From: a virus
Taxonomy: Duplodnaviria; Caudoviricetes
Direction: 5' to 3' (one strand)
Virus record (IMG/VR): IMGVR_UViG_3300033388_001119
Coordinates: 1 to 57,880 of that record
DNA length: 57,880 bases
A program made the translations under genes and the position numbers. Positions 356-55,573 of the stretch are shown piece after piece. Below the pieces are notes generated by a model. That model had not been told where the DNA came from and ran no database searches. It saw only the letters and a program-made list of their open reading frames with translations. Within the stretch, counting starts at the first letter, position 1; every line of letters starts with the position of its first letter.

Positions 356-691
356 TTATTTAAATGTTATACCTAATCTTTTAGCTTTTCTCTCGCTATT
401 GTATTGTGCCCACGCTCTCTCCTTTGCAAGTTCCCAGGCTTTGTCGTCTTTTAGGAATGGTCTGTCTGCTATTAGTTCTCGTTTGATTTGCTCAGCAAGT
501 GGTCTGATTATTCGTTTGATTTGCTCAGCAAGTGGTCTGATTATTTCGGTCCATCTAAAGTTTCTGAGTTCTCTTCTGTGTTGTTGTCGTTCCATCTCTT
601 GTTGGATTATTTCTTGAGTGTGTTTCTTAGCCATACGAGCTTGCCACATTCTTTTAAACTTCTCTGTAATAATTGTTTCTTGTGTTTCCAT
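356..691 (-). CDS. Hypothetical helical protein (111 aa) with an 11-aa tandem duplication
   Basis: ORF track; IIRPLAEQIKR occurs twice. Confidence 0.75.
   Translation of the reverse strand: METQETIITEKFKRMWQARMAKKHTQEIIQQEMERQQHRRELRNFRWTEIIRPLAEQIKRIIRPLAEQIKRELIADRPFLKDDKAWELAKERAWAQYNSERKAKRLGITFK
479..544. repeat. Perfect 33-bp tandem duplication (2 copies)
   Basis: tcgtttgatttgctcagcaagtggtctgattat at 479-511 and 512-544. Confidence 0.95.
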
Positions 692-1328
692 TTTATATAT
701 GTATTGGTTAGTGGATAGGTAGGTTCCGATGTGTTCGACTTACATACATGTGAGTATGTATCTATCCATTGTAATTTGTTGACTCTCCGTTCTCTTGGTG
801 TCGGCAGTTTACTCTCTGCCCAGGACTCCTGGTTTCCGTCATATGTATCTGTTTGTCGATTGTATGCGTTTTGAATGTGTTTGAAGTTTTTTGTCTCTCC
901 CTCAGTTCAACTGTCTTGAGACCACACCCGTTACTTTCACTGCCCCCTACTCGATCGGTCGCACTCTCTCCTATGAGTGTGAACAGACCTTTTGGCTTGA
1001 ACTCAGCATGTAACCCTAACCCTATAAAGATTGTAGCTCACCTTTCATTGGTTGTTATACAATAACATACAGTTATTATACACGTTCCCAATGCACTGGA
1101 TTTTGTGTTTTATATAGGTTTCAAGAAATAAAGAACGTCATTACAATAACTTCAAAACATTACCATCTTGGGCTTATGTTTATAAATTGCTTACCTCGTT
1201 GGGCTTAGCTAATTGTACGAAATTAAAGAACGGATATTTTTGAAGGAAATAACAAACCTTATTTGGTGGGTGTGTTGCATTCGATTAACAACATACAAAG
1301 GTTTAAACCTTTACACCCATATATTAAA
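692..1328 (-). ncRNA. Candidate large structured non-coding RNA or leader, family not recognised
   Basis: About 630-nt gap in a gene-dense minus-strand run; many stems found by eye (712-718/762-768, 804-820, 820-832, 904-910/997-1003, 1155-1181, 1185-1214, 1267-1273/1313-1319). Confidence 0.55.
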
Positions 1329-1874
1329 TTATTTAGTGGTATTTATAAAATCTAAACCAATAGTCAAAGCACGTTTATTTAATTCTGCTTTTTTGTCTGC
1401 TGTAATTAGCCTATCAAGTTTTGATAATTCACGTTCCTTTTTAACTTTCTTAAATTCTTCATTGTTAGGGTTGGAAAATTTCGCCTTTCTTTTAAGTAAT
1501 TCAAGCATAAAATTTGCACTAAAATAACCTTTCTTTTCACCATATTCAATGGCTTTTTTATCGTCTGATAATTTGCAAGAGGTAACCTCATAACGATAAG
1601 CAAATGACAACAATTTAAAATTAAGTGCTGTACTTGTAACATTACTTTTAAAAGATGCATTTATTTCGGTGACATATTTATCTGTCAAATTTTGTGCTAT
1701 CTCAGAATTAAAAAACTTGTAAATTGCTTTTGGCGTTAAGGTTTCCTCTTTCCATAGATTAACTCAATTCTTTTTACTTTCAGTTAGTGCACTTACTTTT
1801 TTAGGTGTAAACTTAACTCCTTTTTTTGTCGTTGCTTTTTTAGTGTTAGCATTCACTTTTTTAGTTGTATTCAT
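1329..1874 (-). pseudogene. Lys-rich early protein frame (about 181 codons) interrupted by one in-frame TGA at 1766-1764
   Basis: Hand translation from ATG 1874: MNTTKKVNANTKK...ESKKN*VNLWKEETLTPKAIYKFF..., continuing in frame into the tracked ORF 1329..1688. Confidence 0.6.
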
Positions 1875-3344: not shown

Positions 3345-4907
3345 ATGATTATAAAAGACATCAGCTTTGGTGAAGAAGCTAAAGAGCGCTTGCTTAGTGG
3401 CGTTGATAAAATAGCTAACGCAGTAAAGAGCACGTTAGGGGCTCAAGGTCAAACAGTCCTAATAGAATCAGAAAGTCATACAGGTGGGGTAACAATAACA
3501 AAGGATGGGGTAACTGTTGCTAAGAGCATCCATGTATTAGATCCTGCTGAGGACTTAGCTATACGTGTAATACGTGAGGCTTCAGTTAAGACAGCTACAG
3601 AAGCTGGTGATGGAACTACTACAGCTATTGTTTTAGCTCAAGCAATAATTCACGCAGCTCTAAAGCGAGTTAAGCCACATATGAATAACACTACGATAAT
3701 TCGCCACATGCAATCCTTAGGCGAACAGATTTGTAAAGAACTCGATAAGAAAAGTAAAAAGGTTACGTCTAAAAGATTAATTGATGTTGCTACTATATCC
3801 TCAAACAATGACAAGGAGTTAGGTAAGATTATATCATCCACATATGAACAAGTAGGTAAATCGGGAGTTGTGTTAGTAGAGAATGCTGACGGTAGTGAAA
3901 CAACAAGCGACCTAACTGAAGGAATGAGAATAGAGAGAGGGTTTACTTCTAGATACTTCATCAACAATCCTAAACTAGAAGAGTGTGTCTTAACTAATCC
4001 AAAGATATTATGTCTTAACACTATGATAGAGTCTATCGGAACTATTGAGCATGTGTTAGCCGATATCATGAAACAAAATCAATCATTGCTTATTATTGGT
4101 GAACTTGATCCGAAAGTCTTAAATACATTGAATTTAAATAAAATGAGAAACGGATTAAAGGTTTGTGCGATTAAGCCACCGAACTTCGGGTGGAGAAAAG
4201 ACGACCTTATGGCTGATATAGCATTAGCAACAGGAGCTACTTGTTTTACTGAAGAAGCTGGAGATGCTTATCAGATGGTTAGATATGAAGATTTAGGTAG
4301 AGCAGATAAAGTTGTAGTAAACCATGACAATACCATCATAGTTCTTAATGAAGAAGATAAACCATACATAACGGAACACGTGGAAGGTATATGGGAAAGC
4401 ATGGACTCATCTAAGCATAAGGATTTTTTAAAAGAACGAATAGCAACAATCTCCGGTAAAATTGGCGTAATCTATGTGGGAGCTAACTCAGAAATAGAAC
4501 AAAAAGAAAAAAGAGACAGAGTGGACGATGCGGTCTGTGCAACAAGAGCGGCTCTTGAAGAAGGGATTCTACCCGGAGGAGGCGTGGCTTTAAAAGAAAT
4601 TTCGGACGACCTCGCTCAGCGAGGTGATGGTGAGTCGCAAAGAGTTGCGACAATGATTTTAACCGAGGCGCTAAAAACACCATTCCAACAAATACTCCTC
4701 AACGCAGGACTAGATCCTAAGCAAATAGACAATTGTTTAGACCCTGGAGTAGGTTACGATGTAAAGAATGATCAATATGGCAACATGTTTAAAATGGGAA
4801 TCATAGACCCTACTAAAGTAACTAAGTCAGCTGTATTAAATGCCATATCAGTAGCTAGTACATTCCTAAGTACAAATGCCATTATAACTAACGTACGAGA
4901 AAAATGA
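3345..4907 (+). CDS. groEL: Phage-encoded chaperonin GroEL (Cpn60), 520 aa
   Basis: ITKDGVTVAK, AGDGTTTA, ERIA, DDAVCATRAALEEGILPGGGVAL and GIIDPTKV motifs. Confidence 0.97.
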   Translation: MIIKDISFGEEAKERLLSGVDKIANAVKSTLGAQGQTVLIESESHTGGVTITKDGVTVAKSIHVLDPAEDLAIRVIREASVKTATEAGDGTTTAIVLAQAIIHAALKRVKPHMNNTTIIRHMQSLGEQICKELDKKSKKVTSKRLIDVATISSNNDKELGKIISSTYEQVGKSGVVLVENADGSETTSDLTEGMRIERGFTSRYFINNPKLEECVLTNPKILCLNTMIESIGTIEHVLADIMKQNQSLLIIGELDPKVLNTLNLNKMRNGLKVCAIKPPNFGWRKDDLMADIALATGATCFTEEAGDAYQMVRYEDLGRADKVVVNHDNTIIVLNEEDKPYITEHVEGIWESMDSSKHKDFLKERIATISGKIGVIYVGANSEIEQKEKRDRVDDAVCATRAALEEGILPGGGVALKEISDDLAQRGDGESQRVATMILTEALKTPFQQILLNAGLDPKQIDNCLDPGVGYDVKNDQYGNMFKMGIIDPTKVTKSAVLNAISVASTFLSTNAIITNVREK

Positions 4908-39224: not shown

Positions 39225-42200
39225 ATGAGTGTAAACAATTTTTTAAACGACTTTTATGTAGAAAATACTGGTCAAGCTCCAACAGAAGAGATGGTTACTA
39301 GGATTACTCAGCAATACGGAGATAATTATGACGGTTTAATTAATGACTTAGCTATAGAGATTGGGGGAGCTAAAGAAGTAAATACCGATATAATAAATAA
39401 GATAAAGACTCAATACAATTTGATGAGTGTGAACAACACTCCTAACACTCCTGACACTCCTGTAAAAAAAAAAGGAGAAACTATTACTACTCAAGAGGAT
39501 GTTATGGTTTCCGATTCAAATGGAGAGGAAGATATTATTTCATCGGACTCTTTAGAAGTTCAGCCAACAACTGATACAGACCCACCTAATAAAGCTTTTG
39601 GTAGAGTTAGCGATAAGGATGTGTACGTAAGCGAAAGTTCACCTGAGGTAAAATTCAATCCTATATATAAAGGTCAACAACCATCTACTCATTTAATGAG
39701 GGCTGAGCAATTAGAGAATGGTGATTGGGTTGGATTCCCCTCTTTAATGCAAGATAAAAACGGAGATTGGATTAATATGTCTTATTTACCAGATGAAGAT
39801 TGGGAGCAAATATATAAAAAAGCAGACGAGTTAGGAGAGGTGGTTAATTTTGGTAGCGATAAAGAATCGGCTTTAGCTTATGGTGAAGGCTCATGGAAAG
39901 AGAGTTATAATAAAGGTGAACATTCAGAAAGTTTATATGAGAAGAAAATAGCAGCTGATACCAAAAAGCTTTTGCAAGAACAGAGTGACGCTATTGAAGA
40001 GGAAGCGAAAGAAAGGCAAGAAAGGGAAGACTCTAGAATGGAAATTACCAACACCGTTGGTTATGATGATGGTCCAGGTAGTACATTTGGAATGTATAAA
40101 ATAGAAATACCAGAGTATACTGACCTTGCAGACCCTAAAAGAGATTATGCAGCTAGTGTTATAGGTGAGCTGTATGAGGGGACCCTAGGACTTAATGACG
40201 ATGGTAGTTTAATTATGCCTACTCCAAACCAAATGATGGGTGGTGATAATATTTTTTATTACGGACCTCAAGAAGCTACCGCAATGATTCAAGCGTTTAG
40301 TGAAGATGGTTTTTTTGGAGATGATAAATGGACGCTTAAGCAGATGTATGAGAATAATCCAGTTAATAACTATATGCAAGCTCAATACAATAACGGAGCT
40401 CAATCATATGGAAGTATAGATGGTTACATGAGAAGTAAGTATCCTGGTTATAATTCTATAGCCGACACACATAAAGAATATGAAGGTGGTAATTACGGTA
40501 TAAAAGATTGGGATAATATTTCTGAAGATGATGCTAACTTTATTAGGATGAAGTTTAATTCTAGAGCAGGAGATTTAACTATTAATAGCGCTAACACAGC
40601 TGATAAAAATAACGCTTACTTAAGAGCTGGACTATACGATTTAAAAACAGACATCACTTATGAGGTGACTAAACTAAATGCTTTAAATCAAGACTTATTG
40701 TATAACAATTATACTATGGCAGCTATTCCTTTAGAGGAGTTAAGTAAAAATGAAAAGAAGCAATATGAGGAAAACATGCGTAAAATGCTTGCGCTAACAG
40801 CTGATTATAATATGGTAAATCAAGAATGGGCTAACCTTCAAGAACCGGACTTACGAATGTATAACCCATTTACAAATCAACTAATAGATGCCTCAAATCC
40901 TAATTCTCAATTGATAGGGAATTATAATGATAAAATAGACGAAGAGGCAGCTAAGCTTGCTATAGAAAAGAATCCGAAAGAACTGCAAGAAGCTTTTGAT
41001 GTGAACTATCAGCATGTAATGAACTTAGCGAAGAAGATTAAATTAAACTATAAATACAACAAACCAGTAACACATAACGGAGTAACATACCAAAAGGGAG
41101 ATGTTATTGATAGAACTAATTTACAAGTAGTAGCTGAGTGGATGGGCGAAATGGGTGGGGTAAATGAGTATGAAGACCTTGCAATGAACCCATTAGCATT
41201 AGTGTCAGGTCAGCCTACAGAAGATTTAATAGACATGTTCCCTGATCCAGAAGCGGTAGTAGCCTCCGCTGGGTTTCCTATGATAACTAGTAACACGGAG
41301 ATAGCTATGGAATACAATAGGGCTATTTATGAGCTAGCAGTAATCAATACAGCGTTAAAAGAAAATAGAGACCCTAGTAAACTACAAAAGGGAGAAAGCA
41401 TTGTGACTGGTTCTTTAATTGGCTCTGGGCGTGTAAAAAACAACGGAACCTTAGATTACGTTTATAATAACATGGATGAAGGTGATAATGAGTTACCTTT
41501 TTATGTATCTACCCTAGCCGAAATGGATAAAACACTACCTGAAACTGCTAGGTTTCTTAATAGAGTTAACGAGGGGTTTTGGAGCACATTATATGGAGAT
41601 GCTACAGGAGAATATTTATTTGGAAACGTTTATAACCAAGCAAGCTACCTTTCTACAGCTCTTGATAAAGTAGGACTAGAGGGTAGTTACATAGACGACT
41701 TAAGGACTAGGTCACAACCAGATAATATAGATTTTGCAGGTGGGTTAACAGGAACTGTATTTGGAATAGTTTTAGAATTTGGTGGAGCACAGGGATTATT
41801 AAAAGCGCCAGCTGCTATAGCTGAAGGTGTTATGGCTACTGAACTTTTAACCGTAGGAGGAGCAACTGAAAAGGTTACTAGGGGATTAACATATACTAAT
41901 ATAGATAAAGTCTTTGGGTCTGCTTATGAATTAAACAGACTGAAGTTGATATCAGGTGGTAGCCCATACACTATATTTGGTAGTAATGTAGTATTAAGGT
42001 CCATGCAAGGTGGTATCGAGTTTGGTACAACAGGATTAGTCTTAGATAAAACAGATGAATATAGGTGGCGAGATGGGTTAGCTTTTGGTGCTGGTTATGG
42101 AATATATAGTGAAATGGGAGCTCTTATTAGTAGAAGCCCGTCATACCAAAAAATATCTCAAAAGGTAAATGATTTTAAATACAGTTATACCCCGTCCGTA

Positions 42201-45200
42201 GGTGTATATAAAAAACCAAGTATCCTTCAAAGAATCAAACAAGGAGGTATCGGTACAGCTCAAGCGACTACAAAAGTTGCAGGAAGCGCCGCTATTGGTA
42301 CAGGTATTTCGTATGCCATAGAGTTATTTGATGAAACAATTTCTCCTGACGACCCCTTAATGGCCGAGCAGCTAAACAACTTACCAGAGGAGATTCAAGG
42401 AAACTCTAAAGCACTAACTACTTTTTACACATTTGCAGGATTAGGACTCTTAAACAAATCACTTGGTAAGCAATTAATGACAGACATAAAAGGTTTAAAA
42501 CCATTTGATGTATCCTTTAATCATTTCTTTAGAAGTCAAGAAGCTTATCGTGCTTGGAAGAATAAACAAGGAACTCCACAAGGCATGAAGCTACTAACCG
42601 AAGGCGCTAAAGATGTAATGGAGAATGGAACACCAGAACAAAAACAAAACTTAAAAAACCAAGAAGCTATATCCTCGTATAATAATGGTTTAACTGAGGC
42701 GAAAAATGAAATATATAAGTACGATAAAAAAGTAGAGGATTATAATAATTCTATTTCTGTTGTTAATAGTGTAAATAACAACCCTTCTAAAAAACCAAAC
42801 AATATACCTGTAAAGCCGGTGCCTAACGCTCAAGGAGACGGAGAGATAGAGGTTCCTGACAATGGAACTGAAGAAGGTAACTTGCAGAATATTGAAAATA
42901 TTATTTCCACTCCATCGAAAGATTTAGAAAACGCAGCTAAAGGAGAAGTGAAAGATGGAAACATTTCAGAAGAAAATGGAATGAATGGAATAAACGCTGT
43001 TCAAGATGTGTTAGCCACTAATAGTAAAGTAAAAGGAATTCAGAACACTAAAGTTAGAGCTAGAGCGGTCCAAGCACTACAGACTAAGAAAGAACTACAA
43101 AGAGAGTTAGATAAATTAAATGAGGACCACAAGAATGGTGTGGTGGCTAACTTTGAAGCAGAAAAAAAGAATCTAGAGGAAAAGATTAAAAACGTTGATC
43201 AACAAATTACTGAAATAGAAAGCTACGAAGAAACAGAAGCTGACTACGTAACTGACTTAATTAAAAATAAAGATAGACGCAATCACGATGTTAGTGGACC
43301 TGGAATCCCAGGGTTAAAGGAAAAGTATCCTAAGTTAGCGGAGTTCTTACAACAAAAACACGCAGAAGGTATGACACCTGTAGAGGCGTTAAAAGAATAT
43401 CAAAAGCAACCGCCTGAGGTTACAGAGGTTGAGTCAAAAGCAGAAGTTGTAGAGGGAGAGGGTGGCGCTCCAGTTAGTGGTAAACAGGACTTACCGACAG
43501 CATCAACTGAACAGTCAGCGGAAACCACACAAGAGAGTAATCAAAATGTAGAAGAAGTTGTACAAGAAACTGCACAAGAAACAGTAGTAAAACCTTCTAA
43601 ATTTACTTGGGATCCAATCCAAGAAGCATTTGTAGAATCAACTCCTCCCGAAACTTTAGAAGTATCTGTTAGTGGTAATTTTGATGGCTTAAGAACACAG
43701 GGGAAAGAGACTATGGATTTACGAGGTGACGCTAGAGGTAAAGATGGTGAGATAATAGAAACTAAAAACAAAGAAGGCGAAACAGTTTTAACCTTAGTAA
43801 AAGAAACTTACGACGCTGAGGGGAGACCTGGATATGTAGGCGTGTCAGTTACTTTACCTGAAGGTAGTACTAAAACAGCTGATGATGTTAGAGCTGAGCT
43901 AGAGAATCAAATGAATAAACTAACTAATGGGGAGGATATTTCAGGAAAAAGTTTTAGTAATATTAATGATTTAAACCCCTCAGCTGTAGATAAAAATGTA
44001 GAATTTAAAACACAAGAAGATGCCATTCAAGAGCCAAGCGCAGAGAGCGTACCTGTACAAGAATCACCCGGAGATAGCGAAGCGGTGGTCGAAAGCGTAC
44101 CCGAACCAGAGGTCGCTCCCGAAAAAGTTGAAGTCGAAGAAAAAATCGAAGTTGAGGAGACGCCGAAAGAAGAAGTAATAGAAGCAGAGGTAGTTGAAGA
44201 GCCTGTAGTAGATAATAAGGAACCTAGACAACCTGGTAAAGTAGAACAACCACCTAAAAGAGGTTCTCAAATAGACCAAGACTTAGACGCTGTTATTAAT
44301 AGCGGCACGAAAGGAGAGGCTTTATTAAGACAAAACTTAGAAGCTAAAGGATATAGAAAAGACCAAATAGATAGAGCGATTAGAAGAAAAGATAGAGAAG
44401 CTTTAGTCGAGTTAAAAAATCTAAAGAAAGACTTACAGTTACAAGGTAAAGCTAATAAGAAGTATACTGTTAAAGCCACGGATGAATTTAAGAAGCAGCT
44501 TAAAGATGTTATTGATAGATTAGCCGGTGATAGGAATATAAAATTTACTAAAGGCGAACTAAATAAAATACTAGAAGCGGCTACAGGTACCGAAATGCAA
44601 GGTCTTAAAGTGGAAAAAGCGATAGAGAAAGCGGTGGAAGTGGTAGAGAAAAGTGTTAAGCGTTCATTAAATAACAACATTAATGACTTACTTAAACTTA
44701 AAAATGTAGAGAAAAAACAAGGAAAAAGAAAGGTAGGAAAAATTAGCATTGACTCTAGAAGACAATTTAACGACTTGAGAGATGAGTGGAAAAAAATTAA
44801 TCCTAAAGATTTAACTATAGGTGAAATGGAGGCTATAGAAACTGAATTAAGTAGTTTGATTTATGAAGGTAAACTAGCTGTAGAGCCTGCGCAACGCATA
44901 ATAAGAGACACTAGAAGAAGTGTTAAAGGTCAAGTAAATGAATCACTATACAGTGATCAAACTCCAAAGACAGATTTTAAAAACGGGGTACCTGACGTAG
45001 AAGCTTATTTAAAAGATAATACTAATAATTTTGTGATTATAAACGGTCGTCAAGTTAGTTCTGTCTCTGGGCTTAATGATTTTATTAAAGACAATCCGTT
45101 TGTAGATGTATCTCAAGCTAAAGGATATGTAGCTACTACTCCAGCAGAAGCAGCTCAAGCAGGTAGACCTAGCATATTAAGCGGTTTAAAATATTGGACT

Positions 45201-47528
45201 CTAGATAATTGGCAAACTATTAGAAATACAACTGCTAAACTGAGAGGTAGAGGAGGTAAAGCTGTTCATAAAAACGTGACATCTTTAATTGATAATATAT
45301 ATAGGTCGGAGTATAGGGAAATTGTAGGTAAACATCAAACTAGAGAATATGTGAGGAGTCAAATAAAAGACATCCCAGGCTACTCTAATAACAAACTAGG
45401 GAGAATAGAATTTAAAAACTACTTAACTAACTCGGCTCCAAGTAATATTACTACTAGTAAAAATTTAGACATAACAAACGACCAGGCGGTCTATATGTAT
45501 TTATTAGGAAAAAGAGATGGTGTAAAAAGATTGGAAGATAATAAGATAGACCCATTAGCTTTAAGTAATTATATAGAAAATAATCCAGCATTAAAAACCT
45601 GGGCTAGTAAAGTGGCTAAGATATTTGGTCAATATGGATATGATAGATATAATGAAAGATATGAGGTTATCACCGGTAAACCAATGCCAAAGGCTAGTGG
45701 AGAAATTACCGCTAGTATGGAGGGTGACCCTACAAGTGTATATATACCTATTCAGATAAATCCCGATGTAGCCCCTGTGGACCCGTTTGGAGAAAAGGGT
45801 GAAGACGCTCAATATTCAGGGCTTAACGTTTTGTCAGCTCACTTATTAGAGAAAACTAGTGACAGAGGAGCTACAAAAATAATTGGAACCATGGATGCTA
45901 TGGATAGATACTTTACTACTATGGAACATATGAGCGCTTTTTATGATGTAGCTCAACAATATAACAACATATTCAATCCTCAAGCTAGACCTCAAATGAT
46001 AAACATATTAGGAAGGGGAGGTTCTAATAAATTAGACAAAATAATGGAAGTTCTTAATGAGGGGATTACTGGAAACAGAAGAGTTACTATTGGAGATAGA
46101 GATAAAATAGATAAGACGATAACTCAAATTGGTAGATTTCCGGTCTTCTGGGGACTAGCTGGAAAGACTAAAACAATGATAGGACAAGCTAGTAGTGGTG
46201 TAGCCTATCCAAAAGAGTTCTTAAAATACTTAACCCCTAAGGAGTTAGTAGGTGGATACATGAATGTAGGTAAAGGGTTGATAGGTAAAGGTGCTTCTGT
46301 GGCACAACAGTTAGGTATTAAAAAACCCACTGATAAAAGAATTCTAGAGGAAGATACATTTTTCTTAGAAAAATGGGTAACCGACCCTCAGTTTGCTGAC
46401 AGGTGGAATAAAAATAAAATAGATCCCTTATTTCAAATACAAGATGTTGGGGGCGGAAAAGATTTATGGGATAGAGCAGCTAATGTGCTTCTTTTGGGTG
46501 TAAAAACAGGAGACATGATGGCTTTACAAATGGGTGTCGGTGGAACAAACGCCCTATATCATAAGTACATTAACGAAGGAATGAGTAAAGAAGATGCGTA
46601 TGATAAAGCGGCTGGTATTTATTACATGATAACTCAAGAAGCTCAACAAACAGGAAGTAGGCTAGGGTTACCAGATTACCTTAATAATAGGTTTAGTAGA
46701 GCAGGAATTACTTTTACTACTAGTATTAACTCTATAATGAATAAAGGAGTTGGGGGTGGAAAAGAGTTTTACTATAGAGGTAAAGATATGACTGGAGGTG
46801 AGAAACTTCACGCTTTAACAGACCTTGGTTTTTATACAACAGTTTTATCTGGATTATTCATATCCCTCGTGGGTCAAGATGATGAACGAGAAAAAGAAAT
46901 TGAAATGTTAAAGACAAGGTACCCAAACACTTTTGACGACAATCAGGCTACTACGAAAAAAAATATTTCTTTTGGACTAGACTTAATACAAAGTGATTTA
47001 CAAGGTTTAGGACCCGTTGGTGTTGTTGGGAATATGTTTTTAAACTCAGACGCTATTAATCCATTTGACTTTCATAGAGGTAAGCCTCAAAGTTTCAGTG
47101 AGCTACCTTTGACTTCTGCCGCAAAGAAAGTATATAATGCTATGGATGTAATGACTAACGCTAAAGGAGAAACTTATGAGGAAAAATATAACAGTTTAAG
47201 TGATTATGAAAAATATCAAGTAGATGCAGCTTATGGGGCTTTTGGTAAGTTCATGGAACGCATGGAAAAAGCAGGAAAAGGAGAAGTAAGTTTAATAGAT
47301 TTTATAATGGAAAGAGATGAGGATTATGGGTTAACAAGAAGACGAATGGAAGAGATGGATGGGGATAAGATATTAGATTGGGTGTATTATATGTACACTG
47401 GTATAAGACCTCCTCAAGAAGCAATAGGTGGTAATGCAGGCACAGGCTCTACATATAAGAAGACAGAGAGTAAATCTACTTACGAAACAAAAAGTAATTA
47501 TGATGAGGGAAGTACTTATGGTAATTAA
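39225..47528 (+). CDS. Giant probable ejection protein (2767 aa)
   Basis: Last late gene; Gly-rich hydrophobic middle, acidic linker, helical C-terminal half; no catalytic motif recognised. Confidence 0.7.
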   Translation: MSVNNFLNDFYVENTGQAPTEEMVTRITQQYGDNYDGLINDLAIEIGGAKEVNTDIINKIKTQYNLMSVNNTPNTPDTPVKKKGETITTQEDVMVSDSNGEEDIISSDSLEVQPTTDTDPPNKAFGRVSDKDVYVSESSPEVKFNPIYKGQQPSTHLMRAEQLENGDWVGFPSLMQDKNGDWINMSYLPDEDWEQIYKKADELGEVVNFGSDKESALAYGEGSWKESYNKGEHSESLYEKKIAADTKKLLQEQSDAIEEEAKERQEREDSRMEITNTVGYDDGPGSTFGMYKIEIPEYTDLADPKRDYAASVIGELYEGTLGLNDDGSLIMPTPNQMMGGDNIFYYGPQEATAMIQAFSEDGFFGDDKWTLKQMYENNPVNNYMQAQYNNGAQSYGSIDGYMRSKYPGYNSIADTHKEYEGGNYGIKDWDNISEDDANFIRMKFNSRAGDLTINSANTADKNNAYLRAGLYDLKTDITYEVTKLNALNQDLLYNNYTMAAIPLEELSKNEKKQYEENMRKMLALTADYNMVNQEWANLQEPDLRMYNPFTNQLIDASNPNSQLIGNYNDKIDEEAAKLAIEKNPKELQEAFDVNYQHVMNLAKKIKLNYKYNKPVTHNGVTYQKGDVIDRTNLQVVAEWMGEMGGVNEYEDLAMNPLALVSGQPTEDLIDMFPDPEAVVASAGFPMITSNTEIAMEYNRAIYELAVINTALKENRDPSKLQKGESIVTGSLIGSGRVKNNGTLDYVYNNMDEGDNELPFYVSTLAEMDKTLPETARFLNRVNEGFWSTLYGDATGEYLFGNVYNQASYLSTALDKVGLEGSYIDDLRTRSQPDNIDFAGGLTGTVFGIVLEFGGAQGLLKAPAAIAEGVMATELLTVGGATEKVTRGLTYTNIDKVFGSAYELNRLKLISGGSPYTIFGSNVVLRSMQGGIEFGTTGLVLDKTDEYRWRDGLAFGAGYGIYSEMGALISRSPSYQKISQKVNDFKYSYTPSVGVYKKPSILQRIKQGGIGTAQATTKVAGSAAIGTGISYAIELFDETISPDDPLMAEQLNNLPEEIQGNSKALTTFYTFAGLGLLNKSLGKQLMTDIKGLKPFDVSFNHFFRSQEAYRAWKNKQGTPQGMKLLTEGAKDVMENGTPEQKQNLKNQEAISSYNNGLTEAKNEIYKYDKKVEDYNNSISVVNSVNNNPSKKPNNIPVKPVPNAQGDGEIEVPDNGTEEGNLQNIENIISTPSKDLENAAKGEVKDGNISEENGMNGINAVQDVLATNSKVKGIQNTKVRARAVQALQTKKELQRELDKLNEDHKNGVVANFEAEKKNLEEKIKNVDQQITEIESYEETEADYVTDLIKNKDRRNHDVSGPGIPGLKEKYPKLAEFLQQKHAEGMTPVEALKEYQKQPPEVTEVESKAEVVEGEGGAPVSGKQDLPTASTEQSAETTQESNQNVEEVVQETAQETVVKPSKFTWDPIQEAFVESTPPETLEVSVSGNFDGLRTQGKETMDLRGDARGKDGEIIETKNKEGETVLTLVKETYDAEGRPGYVGVSVTLPEGSTKTADDVRAELENQMNKLTNGEDISGKSFSNINDLNPSAVDKNVEFKTQEDAIQEPSAESVPVQESPGDSEAVVESVPEPEVAPEKVEVEEKIEVEETPKEEVIEAEVVEEPVVDNKEPRQPGKVEQPPKRGSQIDQDLDAVINSGTKGEALLRQNLEAKGYRKDQIDRAIRRKDREALVELKNLKKDLQLQGKANKKYTVKATDEFKKQLKDVIDRLAGDRNIKFTKGELNKILEAATGTEMQGLKVEKAIEKAVEVVEKSVKRSLNNNINDLLKLKNVEKKQGKRKVGKISIDSRRQFNDLRDEWKKINPKDLTIGEMEAIETELSSLIYEGKLAVEPAQRIIRDTRRSVKGQVNESLYSDQTPKTDFKNGVPDVEAYLKDNTNNFVIINGRQVSSVSGLNDFIKDNPFVDVSQAKGYVATTPAEAAQAGRPSILSGLKYWTLDNWQTIRNTTAKLRGRGGKAVHKNVTSLIDNIYRSEYREIVGKHQTREYVRSQIKDIPGYSNNKLGRIEFKNYLTNSAPSNITTSKNLDITNDQAVYMYLLGKRDGVKRLEDNKIDPLALSNYIENNPALKTWASKVAKIFGQYGYDRYNERYEVITGKPMPKASGEITASMEGDPTSVYIPIQINPDVAPVDPFGEKGEDAQYSGLNVLSAHLLEKTSDRGATKIIGTMDAMDRYFTTMEHMSAFYDVAQQYNNIFNPQARPQMINILGRGGSNKLDKIMEVLNEGITGNRRVTIGDRDKIDKTITQIGRFPVFWGLAGKTKTMIGQASSGVAYPKEFLKYLTPKELVGGYMNVGKGLIGKGASVAQQLGIKKPTDKRILEEDTFFLEKWVTDPQFADRWNKNKIDPLFQIQDVGGGKDLWDRAANVLLLGVKTGDMMALQMGVGGTNALYHKYINEGMSKEDAYDKAAGIYYMITQEAQQTGSRLGLPDYLNNRFSRAGITFTTSINSIMNKGVGGGKEFYYRGKDMTGGEKLHALTDLGFYTTVLSGLFISLVGQDDEREKEIEMLKTRYPNTFDDNQATTKKNISFGLDLIQSDLQGLGPVGVVGNMFLNSDAINPFDFHRGKPQSFSELPLTSAAKKVYNAMDVMTNAKGETYEEKYNSLSDYEKYQVDAAYGAFGKFMERMEKAGKGEVSLIDFIMERDEDYGLTRRRMEEMDGDKILDWVYYMYTGIRPPQEAIGGNAGTGSTYKKTESKSTYETKSNYDEGSTYGN
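39464..39511 (+). other. Candidate -1 frameshift or slippage signal (A10 plus hairpin)
   Basis: GTA AAA AAA AAA GGA; stem GAAACTAT 39477-39484 with ATGGTTTC 39504-39511. Confidence 0.55.
44020..44178 (+). CDS. Nested +1-frame basic protein (52 aa, MPFKSQAQRAYLYKNHPEIAKRW...)
   Basis: Hand translation; A-rich leader; local rise in GC; N-terminus recalled from stand-alone small phage proteins. Confidence 0.75.
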   Translation: MPFKSQAQRAYLYKNHPEIAKRWSKAYPNQRSLPKKLKSKKKSKLRRRRKKK

Positions 47529-47911
47529 TCATGCAGCTCGGCGTGACATCTTGCACACAATACTATGCATTTGTTTATTTCATCCATTATAGTTTGCTTA
47601 CCAAAACCTCTGTGAATTAAGTTACTCACTTCTGCTAGTTTGTCGTCATTTGGATGATGAAACTGTAAAGCTCTAACGCTAAATGAAGGGTGAGTTTCTT
47701 TAGAGTAACCGCATTTTGCACACTTTAATTTAGACTTATACTGAGCGGACCACACTCTATTAACTTCCCTGTAATGAGTTTTACCATGTTGATAACACTT
47801 TTTACATATATGTCTATAATATTTTTTACCTTTCTTAATACCTGCCGAGGGGAAGGATGTGGGAGGGAAGGACGCTGAACACTTCTTACACTTTCTTTTG
47901 TTCACACTCAT
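47525..47911 (-). CDS. HNH endonuclease with Zn-binding CxxC pairs
   Basis: CAKCG...LQFHH...KCIVLCARCHAELH. Confidence 0.88.
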   Translation of the reverse strand: MSVNKRKCKKCSASFPPTSFPSAGIKKGKKYYRHICKKCYQHGKTHYREVNRVWSAQYKSKLKCAKCGYSKETHPSFSVRALQFHHPNDDKLAEVSNLIHRGFGKQTIMDEINKCIVLCARCHAELHD

Positions 47912-48089
47912 AAGAGACAGAAGAGTTAATCTCTTTTAGTTTTAAAATAAGGGCCGAGATTTTACCCTGGGTAGTATAATACTCCTCATCTATTAACGAT
48001 TCATAAATGTCGTCCGTTAGGTCGTTGATCTCCTTCATAACGAAGTTGACATGGTTAACCTTGTGAAATTTTACACCGGACTTTTTCAT
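47886..48089 (-). CDS. Hypothetical protein (67 aa)
   Basis: ORF track. Confidence 0.75.
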   Translation of the reverse strand: MKKSGVKFHKVNHVNFVMKEINDLTDDIYESLIDEEYYTTQGKISALILKLKEINSSVSYECEQKKV

Positions 48090-54833: not shown

Positions 54834-55202
54834 TTATTTCCATCTACTTATAAACTCAGCCAACGAGTTATCCGTAGATAGTTTATCTTGAATTTGCTTT
54901 ACTCCGTATAAAATTGTGGAGTTGGCCGCATTGTAACCATTAGTCTTCATACATCTCGATATTGTAGCTAACTTATACCCATTCTCTTTAAGTATATAGT
55001 AAATTATGTATCGTGATTGTGTGATGTGGTTGTCTTTAGTTTTTTGAAATAATTCTGAAGGCTCAGTTCTAGTTATATTAGATACTGCTTCTACTACTTC
55101 ATCAAACAAATCGTAGTCTACTATCATTTTATTATATTTTAAGTAATCCTCTTCTGTGGGGGGATATCTTGTGTCTGCCCATATTTCCTTAGTTCTCTGC
55201 AT
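54834..55202 (-). CDS. Stand-alone DnaA domain-IV-like DNA-binding protein
   Basis: SRYIIYYIL...LATISR...NSTILYGVKQI parallels DnaA RQIAMYL...DHTTVLHA. Confidence 0.65.
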   Translation of the reverse strand: MQRTKEIWADTRYPPTEEDYLKYNKMIVDYDLFDEVVEAVSNITRTEPSELFQKTKDNHITQSRYIIYYILKENGYKLATISRCMKTNGYNAANSTILYGVKQIQDKLSTDNSLAEFISRWK

Positions 55203-55226: not shown

Positions 55227-55514
55227 TTATAATTTATTATCAATTCCAAATATTTTATTTATATTTTTTCCTAGGTCTGAATAGTTCGGGCATTCCTTAC
55301 ATAAGCCTGTGATTTCATTGACTAATTGTATAATACCTACCGCCATCATCTTCTCACTACCTGTGCCGCTGTTGAGTTTTTTATGTGCTTTATTAACTAA
55401 ATCTGTTATCTTTTTATTAACTTTATCTGTTTGGTCTTCACATTTTTCTTCAACAGTCTTAGGTTTGTAATACTCCTTTGTTTGCCTAAGTTCATTAAGT
55501 GTACGTTTCTTCAT
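55227..55514 (-). CDS. Hypothetical protein (95 aa)
   Basis: ORF track. Confidence 0.75.
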   Translation of the reverse strand: MKKRTLNELRQTKEYYKPKTVEEKCEDQTDKVNKKITDLVNKAHKKLNSGTGSEKMMAVGIIQLVNEITGLCKECPNYSDLGKNINKIFGIDNKL

Positions 55515-55573
55515 AGTGTTTAAATTATCCTTCCCTCATCAATGATGAGTGTGAACAAGGTAATTATTTTTAT

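Follow-up and report, generated by a model that had tools for sequence, protein, structure and literature searches.

A conserved non-coding core in the early region of a marine Bacteroidota-type podophage is complementary to the start of an HNH endonuclease gene

Introduction

What occupies several hundred nucleotides near the head of a phage's early operon when no gene does? The window analyzed here comprises all 57,880 bp of an IMG/VR virus record that is listed as linear, with an estimated completeness of 95%. The stretch in question, 692-1328 on the minus strand (637 nt), lies free of ORFs between two early minus-strand genes, 1329-1874(-) and 356-691(-). The phage is a marine Bacteroidota-type podophage of ~58 kb, and to our knowledge almost nothing has been described of phage regulatory biology in marine Bacteroidota hosts.

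The gene content comprises terminase, portal and virion proteins, a primase with a BT4734-like N-domain, a C5 methylase, a Sak-type annealing protein, a PDDEXK nuclease and an HNH endonuclease (47525-47911(-); phrog_2255 match, E 8e-21). Thousands of relatives of the primase occur in marine metagenomes, and the named phages that match partially have Flavobacterium, Polaribacter and similar bacteria as hosts. Plus-strand genes extend from ~2488 to 47528, and the early and replication genes, on the minus strand, occupy 1874 to 1 and continue from 57880 to 47525. The record is circularly permuted, since synteny with the relative L074 (73% primase identity) crosses the record ends and a small gene spans them. 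A phage GroEL-like chaperonin of 520 aa is encoded at 3345-4907(+); it is also present in L074 and in MW202828, where a GroES-like gene accompanies it.

Results

The stretch is conserved as nucleotide sequence, not as protein

On the minus strand, 692-1328 contains no ORF of at least 30 aa with an ATG, GTG or TTG start. Stop-codon reassignment (TAG to Q, TGA to W) opened no credible gene in the stretch, in agreement with the initial annotation, which had seen no credible minus-strand gene here. None of the six candidate ORFs inside 692-1328 is on record in the protein collection; three of the four flanking ORFs are on record as typed and the fourth with a different first letter (P0125). Searches of eight stop-to-stop frames with Pfam and PHROGs gave no credible match. 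We used the 91-codon open frame of the minus strand as a phmmer query; 1.84 billion representatives yielded three related ORFs and a repetitive 2407-aa protein. By word-index search and cluster lists, the related ORFs were raised to 16 predicted proteins of 75-131 aa from ENA/Logan contigs.

We mapped these 16 predicted ORFs onto the three minus frames of the record. The ORFs overlap the stretch and follow at least seven different reading-frame paths (1a, n = 3; 1b, n = 1; 1c, n = 3; 1d, n = 1; 2a, n = 5; 2b, n = 2; 2c, n = 1). Three remain in one frame throughout, five switch after residue 46 and return 39 residues later, two switch without return and three finish in the third frame; the others show a shift near residue 74, a 20-residue deletion and a broken-off end (one each). 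The record itself has a stop 8 codons past the shared ATG, and its main frame is without a start. In the variant contig X2, 1-nt deletions at 992 and 948, on both sides of the unchanged segment 953-990, break the frame; as read from the sequence, the shifted frame around 953-990 runs into a TAG. Because the ORFs take at least seven frame paths and no such ORF exists in the record or in X2, conservation is at the nucleotide level and not at the protein level. A protein frame kept among homologues, which the initial annotation had named as evidence against its non-coding reading, was not found: no single reading frame is retained, as it would be in a protein-coding sequence. The most plausible view of the 16 ORFs is that gene callers produced them as artefacts of a T-poor strand. 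The stretch 692-1328 is non-coding, mosaic and conserved at the nucleotide level.

As a coding alternative, a 95-aa orphan ORF could begin with the ATG at 1048 and end with a stop at 762-764; disrupted in the record, it would be either a pseudogene or a gene whose protein evolves fast. In its favor, a length of exactly 95 aa, with a common start and stop, is shared by eight of the 16 predicted ORFs, the initial 46 residues are nearly invariant, and the minus-strand open runs of 91 and 71 codons exceed those of shuffled sequences (P 0.037 and 0.0085). However, the middle 39 residues of the eight 95-aa ORFs are read in two frames, five more paths are found among the remaining eight, and the ORF is absent from the record and from X2 although the nucleotides are kept. 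Neither Pfam nor PHROGs provided a match, the 1.84 billion representatives contained no relative outside the cluster (the other match, the 2407-aa repeat protein, aligned in 9 short stretches), and the core of the stretch is homologous to non-coding leaders of relatives. A decayed small gene is therefore quite improbable; the long open runs and the eight ORFs of 95 aa are the reason for keeping it as a minor rival.

Excess folding is modest and modular

The initial annotation had described the locus as densely structured and listed a series of multi-stem modules. All of these stems are present at the positions given, both on reading the sequence and on folding it. Against plain shuffles (20 each), the whole region had z values of -3.30 (plus strand) and -2.83 (minus strand). 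With shuffling in 106-nt blocks, which preserves local composition (40 shuffles each), the values were -4.18 on the plus strand (0 of 40 as stable) and -2.52 on the minus strand (1 of 40). As controls, eight 637-nt segments were folded on both strands with 18 shuffles each; the resulting 16 z values ranged from +1.52 to -3.31, with one at or below -2.52 and none at or below -4.18. When modules were folded individually (200 shuffles), three of seven reached z ≤ -2.3 on the minus strand (705-775, 1048-1090 and 1260-1324), and among 150-nt windows only 701-850 and 751-900 reached about -2.2 to -2.5. Thus, the excess folding of 692-1328 is modest. One control value also lies at -3.3, and the claim of dense structure is overstated in view of the three modules and the weak 150-nt windows.

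Rfam covariance models gave no match at gathering score in the entire 57,880-nt record, in line with the earlier statement that the locus could not be assigned to a known RNA class. At E ≤ 10 there were only two junk matches (E 0.22 and 5.8); of the sub-threshold models, DUF805b (16.7 bits versus 35.6) matched outside the region, and the second was a human lncRNA model (11 bits versus 70). A tRNA and tmRNA search found none, and of the listed runs containing 300-1700 none is on record as RNA.

A single large structured non-coding RNA of ~630 nt, with multiple junctions as in GOLLD or ROOL, would be consistent with the whole-region z of -2.5 to -4.2 and with the GC content, which is 0.43-0.47 in 700-1050 versus 0.27-0.30 in the flanks. 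It is nevertheless very unlikely. Four of the seven modules lack excess stability on the minus strand, Rfam holds no matching model, and natural variants delete or swap single modules, which argues against one integrated 630-nt fold. Judging from the residues of the predicted ORFs (eight type-2 ORFs, and a V-to-A change in seven of the eight type-1 ORFs), the long-range stem 904-910/997-1003 is weakened without compensation in 15 of the 16 variants, and the ccagg/cctgg hairpin is broken, likewise uncompensated, in all eight type-2 ORFs. No integrated multi-domain fold is kept across the homologues. This part of the initial annotation could not be upheld.

The stretch consists of exchangeable elements around a core

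Contigs from four other metagenomes (X1, X2, X3 and X5) were compared with 1-2600; 40 of 164 differences were listed, and further changes may exist. X2 and X5 have 24 letters in place of 608-688, an exchange that keeps the frame. X2 jumps from 1136 to 1272, keeps 1272-1325 and diverges beyond, and in addition to the 1-nt deletions at 948 and 992 it carries one at 1053 and small insertions at 1070-1073. One X1 contig departs after 1009 and another joins at 1100. Joints and loose ends are located at 607/689, 1009, 1100, 1136/1272 and 1325. Among the differences listed, X2 has two in 356-607 and at most three in 689-947, and X5 has three in 96 (flanking coding sequence) versus 10 in 289 (region). 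The core translation (905-1025) is 97% identical in P0135 and P0136, whereas the adjoining segment of the type-2 ORFs reaches 77-91%, and the 16-ORF alignment has 35 invariant columns across 1025-905. Note that core conservation is partly ascertainment, as the variants were found through the core itself. The stretch is pieced together from small, exchangeable elements that surround a single conserved core.

We describe these elements from the upstream gene towards ORF 356-691, with z values for minus and plus strand, respectively. Directly after the stop codon of the upstream gene lies a Y-shaped double stem-loop (1264-1322; module 1260-1324, z -2.3 and -2.2), a terminator- or linker-like cassette without a U-tract. 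It is kept in X2 (1272-1325), where the sequence on both sides differs. A weak promoter-like lead of 21 nt (1247-1267, minus strand) shares 17 of 21 positions with block 1967-1987 of the main divergent promoter region, which is conserved in L074; the likeness is not significant alone (3 matches versus 2.4 expected). The Bacteroidota -7 box has the consensus TAnnTTTG, and the minus strand of 1-2600 contains no exact copy of it. The sole exact TAnnTTTG in the region is on the plus strand (1235-1242), ~25 nt before the Y-shaped stem-loop, and a short plus-strand RNA ending near 1335 is conceivable.

The "twin hairpins" noted earlier correspond to two 17-nt direct repeats, 31 nt apart (1160-1207), without excess fold (module 1150-1218, z -0.8 and -0.3). 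Among 92 loci these repeats occur only in the record, and the interval 1137-1271 is skipped in X2. They are flanked by 12-nt direct repeats (1126-1137 and 1221-1232; 11 of 12 identical) that resemble the footprint of an inserted cassette. The next element, an 11-bp hairpin (1054-1084; module 1048-1090, z -2.5 and -0.7), is a hot spot of variation in which variants carry compensatory changes. In X3 and X5, 1058 T>C is accompanied by 1080 A>G, and 1063 T>C by 1075 A>G, each on a predicted pair (U-A to C-G), so that all four changes listed for the hairpin at 1056-1082 fall on two predicted pairs. X2 has 10 substitutions and 6 gap letters clustered in 1054-1084.

The conserved core of ~120 nt (905-1025, minus strand; module 898-1008, z -0.8 and -0.9) contains an anti-start box and a G-rich tract and has a near-invariant translation in the 16 ORFs. 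The box is held within a local hairpin, ggtc/gacc around cactc/gagtg (956-989; module 950-995, z -1.5 and -2.2), whose outer ggtc/gacc stem has uncompensated changes in 4 of the 16 variants, again as judged from residues. Beyond the core, the "junction" with the ggcag/ctgcc and ccagg/cctgg hairpins (776-845; z -1.5 and -1.4) is dispensable: P0136 is without ~60 nt spanning 780-841, and P0131 lacks 4 residues in the ccagg/cctgg hairpin. The last element is a three-way stem-loop (705-775; z -3.3 and -2.9) located ~20 nt upstream of the ATG (691) of ORF 356-691, likely a 5'-UTR structure. It is identical in contig L083 and unchanged where read through in P0128, P0135 and P0140. On the plus strand its stem is longer by virtue of three G-U pairs.

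Several features were noted in the sequences on either side of the stretch. In another contig, the upstream gene (1329-1874(-)) encodes one uninterrupted protein of 181 aa whose N-terminus is rich in lysine (P0126). In the record, an in-frame TGA (1764-1766), at which P0126 has Leu, divides it into pieces of 36 aa and 144 codons; the TGA may be a nonsense mutation, a sequencing error or a case of recoding. ORF 356-691 contains a perfect 33-nt tandem duplication (479-544; 11 residues) that is missing from the L083, X1, X2 and X5 contigs. ORF 117-347 (76 aa; 112-355) is an optional early gene cassette, skipped in the X1, X2 and X5 contigs with joints at 111/355 and 112/356. A second long ORF-free stretch (1875-2487; 613 nt, GC 0.27, with A- and C-runs) separates the divergent early and late units; ~130 nt of it (1894-2023) are 76.5% identical to L074 and, from this sequence likeness, probably mark the main early promoter region.

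Occurrence of the stretch among relatives

We retrieved 80 loci around primase homologues. In L074, the divergent promoter region and the replication genes align with the record, and the interval matching 1894 to 95 contains unrelated small ORFs packed end to end, with no gap of at least 300 nt. This indicates that the stretch is specific to a narrow lineage. No match was obtained by blastn of 1-2500 against INPHARED phages or by tblastn of ORF 356-691 against phages. ORF 356-691, ORF 1329-1688 and the GroEL-like protein, used as locus queries in viral contigs, returned no related loci there, and two DNA patterns gave none either. In metagenome contigs, ORF 356-691 had one match, L083 (1258 nt), which provides no covariation because it is identical over 692-904. 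A protein scan of genome contigs found none. A DNA-pattern match in these contigs (L092) was rejected as a chance match with no further likeness, and an unannotated gap in MW202828 looks coding and unrelated. The region shared only a 13-mer (see below) with the whole records of the five closest relatives, and was not found in 401 sampled Bacteroidota genomes. In 201 sampled Bacteroidota genomes the 13-mer had scattered one-mismatch matches, with no conserved host site.

A 13-mer in the core is complementary to the HNH start

The initial annotation had mentioned an anti-HNH segment. This segment is real: 968-986 matches the reverse strand of 47898-47916 with 2 mismatches in 19 (0 expected by chance). 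It contains the 13-mer ATGAGTGTGAACA, present as an exact copy in the core (973-985(+)), so that a putative early (minus) transcript would contain the complement. Another exact copy comprises the start codon and the following 10 nt of the HNH endonuclease gene (47899-47911(-)). A second antisense copy (55545-55557(+); exact) is positioned 30 nt upstream of gene 55227-55514(-) and has an orthologous copy in relatives. Sense copies are found in the gene for a 2767-aa virion protein (39225-39435(+)), one at the start (1 mismatch) and one at codon 67 (39423; exact and in frame). In total, the record has four exact copies of the 13-mer and one with a single mismatch, four of the five on the plus strand; with up to 2 mismatches there are 6 matches versus 1.65 expected.

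The 13-mer also starts the HNH gene in L003, L006, L008, L010 and L074, whose proteins are just 52-61% identical to that of the record. The antisense 13-mer, together with a purine-rich tract, lies upstream of the homologue of 55227-55514 in L003, L004, L006, L008 and L074. In L074, further antisense copies occur within coding sequence (the primase gene and a small ORF), and L091 has a sense copy 17 nt before the ATG of a late gene. Apart from the HNH copies, every copy in an early region is oriented antisense to early transcription. The core resembles the leader element of L003 over 23 nt, and both have a downstream G-rich partner for the box; on these grounds we read the core as a duplicated leader element. 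The segments that pair with the box differ between lineages in position and spacing and engage different parts of it. An iteron-type origin is not apparent, as the region has just two 17-nt repeats and a single copy of the 13-mer.

On the early strand, core and HNH start could form 19 contiguous pairs, one of them G-U, with a calculated energy of -31.5 to -37.2 kcal/mol. Of 2351 early-strand windows, the region is the best partner of the HNH start (-37.2 kcal/mol versus a mean of -11.6, sd 3.65); the site at 55545 ranks second (-33.3 kcal/mol). Extended complementarity to a target start, on the strand co-transcribed with the early genes, is what would be expected of an antisense regulator.

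Two further observations concern genes that contain or adjoin the 13-mer. The 2767-aa virion protein (39225-47528(+)) starts with MSVNN and has MSVNN again at residue 67, both encoded by the 13-mer; judging from this repetition, the gene may have an internal second start. Just downstream of the conserved antisense copy, 54834-55202(-) encodes a 122-aa protein with a weak match to the DnaA C-terminal helix-turn-helix (26 bits, below the cut-off of 31.5), which could read the box.

Discussion

We tentatively interpret 692-1328 as the leader of an early transcript in which the core acts as an antisense "anti-start" element for the HNH start, a serious possibility rather than a probable one. Transcription, its strand and an effect on translation are what we infer from the sequence; the complementarity itself is observed. 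The stretch would be a long minus-strand leader of ORF 356-691, transcribed with the early genes. In order of transcription, it would present the Y-shaped stem-loop, an AT-rich spacer with two short repeats, the variable hairpin with its pairing kept, the conserved core of ~120 nt, the dispensable hairpin cluster and the three-way stem-loop before the start codon. Such a leader would be a mosaic within a hypervariable early region, its elements swapped or lost one by one in natural variants, and its core would be a second copy of the leader element found upstream of the replication genes of relatives. The core in the early RNA may pair with the HNH start region; the nuclease, and perhaps the virion protein too, would then be translated only at a later stage of infection. 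Bacteroidota largely do without Shine-Dalgarno-led initiation.

The compensatory pairs in the hairpin at 1056-1082 and the three modules with z ≤ -2.3 on the minus strand count in favor of this leader. Against it, the plus strand folds better relative to its own shuffles (z -4.2 versus -2.5), two antisense copies in L074 lie in coding sequence (primase and small ORF), the outer ggtc/gacc stem is changed without compensation in 4 of 16 variants, and on the circular map ~10 kb separate the core from its HNH target. As the box never varies, it can show no covariation with the target, and the antisense strand bias is not significant as there are just ~4 independent antisense sites. A broader form of the proposal, which we consider doubtful, is a phage-wide antisense timing switch. 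An invariant start box of AUG plus 10 nt would mark the HNH and giant virion genes, and early RNAs would silence these late or dangerous genes through complementary boxes on early transcripts, in the leader and, a second time, ahead of the replication genes. The region itself would serve as a dedicated decoy or antisense module gained by duplication of an older leader element.

Alternatively, the 13-mer could be a DNA-level binding site (an operator, promoter element, nicking site or origin site) and the region regulatory DNA, with the DnaA-domain-IV-like protein of 54834-55202 and the HNH enzyme as candidate binders. The box indeed occurs on both strands and within coding sequence in relatives, one copy lies just upstream of the operon encoding the weak DnaA C-terminal match (26 bits), and four of the five copies in the record share the plus orientation. 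Moreover, nine bases of the box complement agree at eight of nine positions with the relaxed DnaA-box consensus, and the compensatory A-T to G-C changes fit a DNA hairpin equally well. Yet the sense copies in the record are all on an in-frame ATG, and that in L091 is 17 nt before a late ATG. A fixed palindromic operator would not be expected to have partner segments whose position and spacing vary between lineages, as those of the box do; the region has a single copy and no iteron-like cluster, and the copies are not followed by a consistent second promoter hexamer. An RNA-level role fits better than a fixed DNA operator, because sense copies lie on in-frame ATGs, early copies are complementary and partners differ between lineages. 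We regard a DNA element as rather unlikely.

The stretch might also be plain spacer, that is, debris or linkers from cassette shuffling in a hyperplastic early region, with recent kinship accounting for the conservation and incidental hairpins for the structure. Flanking coding DNA is about as similar between variants as the region is (X2, two versus at most three differences; X5, 3/96 versus 10/289), relatives with 73% primase identity lack the region, some variants have lost modules, and one control segment has a z of -3.3 as well. On the other hand, the core exceeds its neighbors in conservation on the same molecules (97% versus 77-91%), the hairpin at 1056-1082 shows compensatory changes, and the 13-mer occurs far beyond chance and at fixed places across lineages. 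Mere spacer is thus improbable in our view, and the early leader with an antisense core is the reading that we carry forward.

If the pairing works, it would provide RNA-only timing of a nuclease and a virion protein in a virulent phage of marine Bacteroidota, and would show that regulatory leaders are copied and moved as cassettes. If the pairing fails, the locus would be a clear case of open frames on a T-poor strand misleading gene callers across conserved non-coding DNA.

The stretch belongs to no known RNA family. Like GOLLD, ROOL and HK022 put, it is non-coding, phage-borne and contains several hairpins. Unlike GOLLD and ROOL, it has no conserved multi-domain fold, and it matches no Rfam model (GOLLD and ROOL included, if among the models searched). 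HK022 put consists of paired leader stem-loops that act in cis on RNA polymerase to cause read-through of terminators; the likeness to the stretch is limited to hairpins in a leader.

A closer parallel in layout is offered by the promoter-early stem-loops (PeSL) of T4-type phages, described as short cassettes of conserved stem-loop and promoter-like sequence that separate small early ORFs in hyperplastic regions and occupy sites where otherwise unrelated sequences are exchanged (PMC4122927). The present stretch, too, lies between small early ORFs of a hypervariable region, at points of exchange, and its Y-shaped element (1272-1325) is kept in X2 with both flanks differing. Compared with the PeSL composite of terminator stem-loop and early promoter, the stem-loop at 1264-1322 has a z of -2.3 and no U-tract, and the promoter part amounts to the 17/21 likeness, the minus strand lacking an exact TAnnTTTG. 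The T4-type phages belong to another group and their hosts to another phylum, and the stretch is far longer than one cassette.

[quoted passage not shown] Here, too, a phage nuclease of HNH type would be targeted at its translation start, with a proposed delay on early transcripts. In the cases described there the structure is a local hairpin beside the start, whereas the complement in the present phage is ~10 kb away and would act in trans or over long range.

The proposed element shares with P1 c4 an antisense position upstream of the target. In P1 c4, the antisense element lies upstream in the target's own operon and blocks downstream protein synthesis. The c4 RNA of the immI operon is described as a trans-acting RNA that represses Ant synthesis, and as a processed RNA of 77 bases (PMC8546580). 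In contrast to c4, the element in 692-1328 is known from DNA sequence alone, and its target box recurs at several genes.
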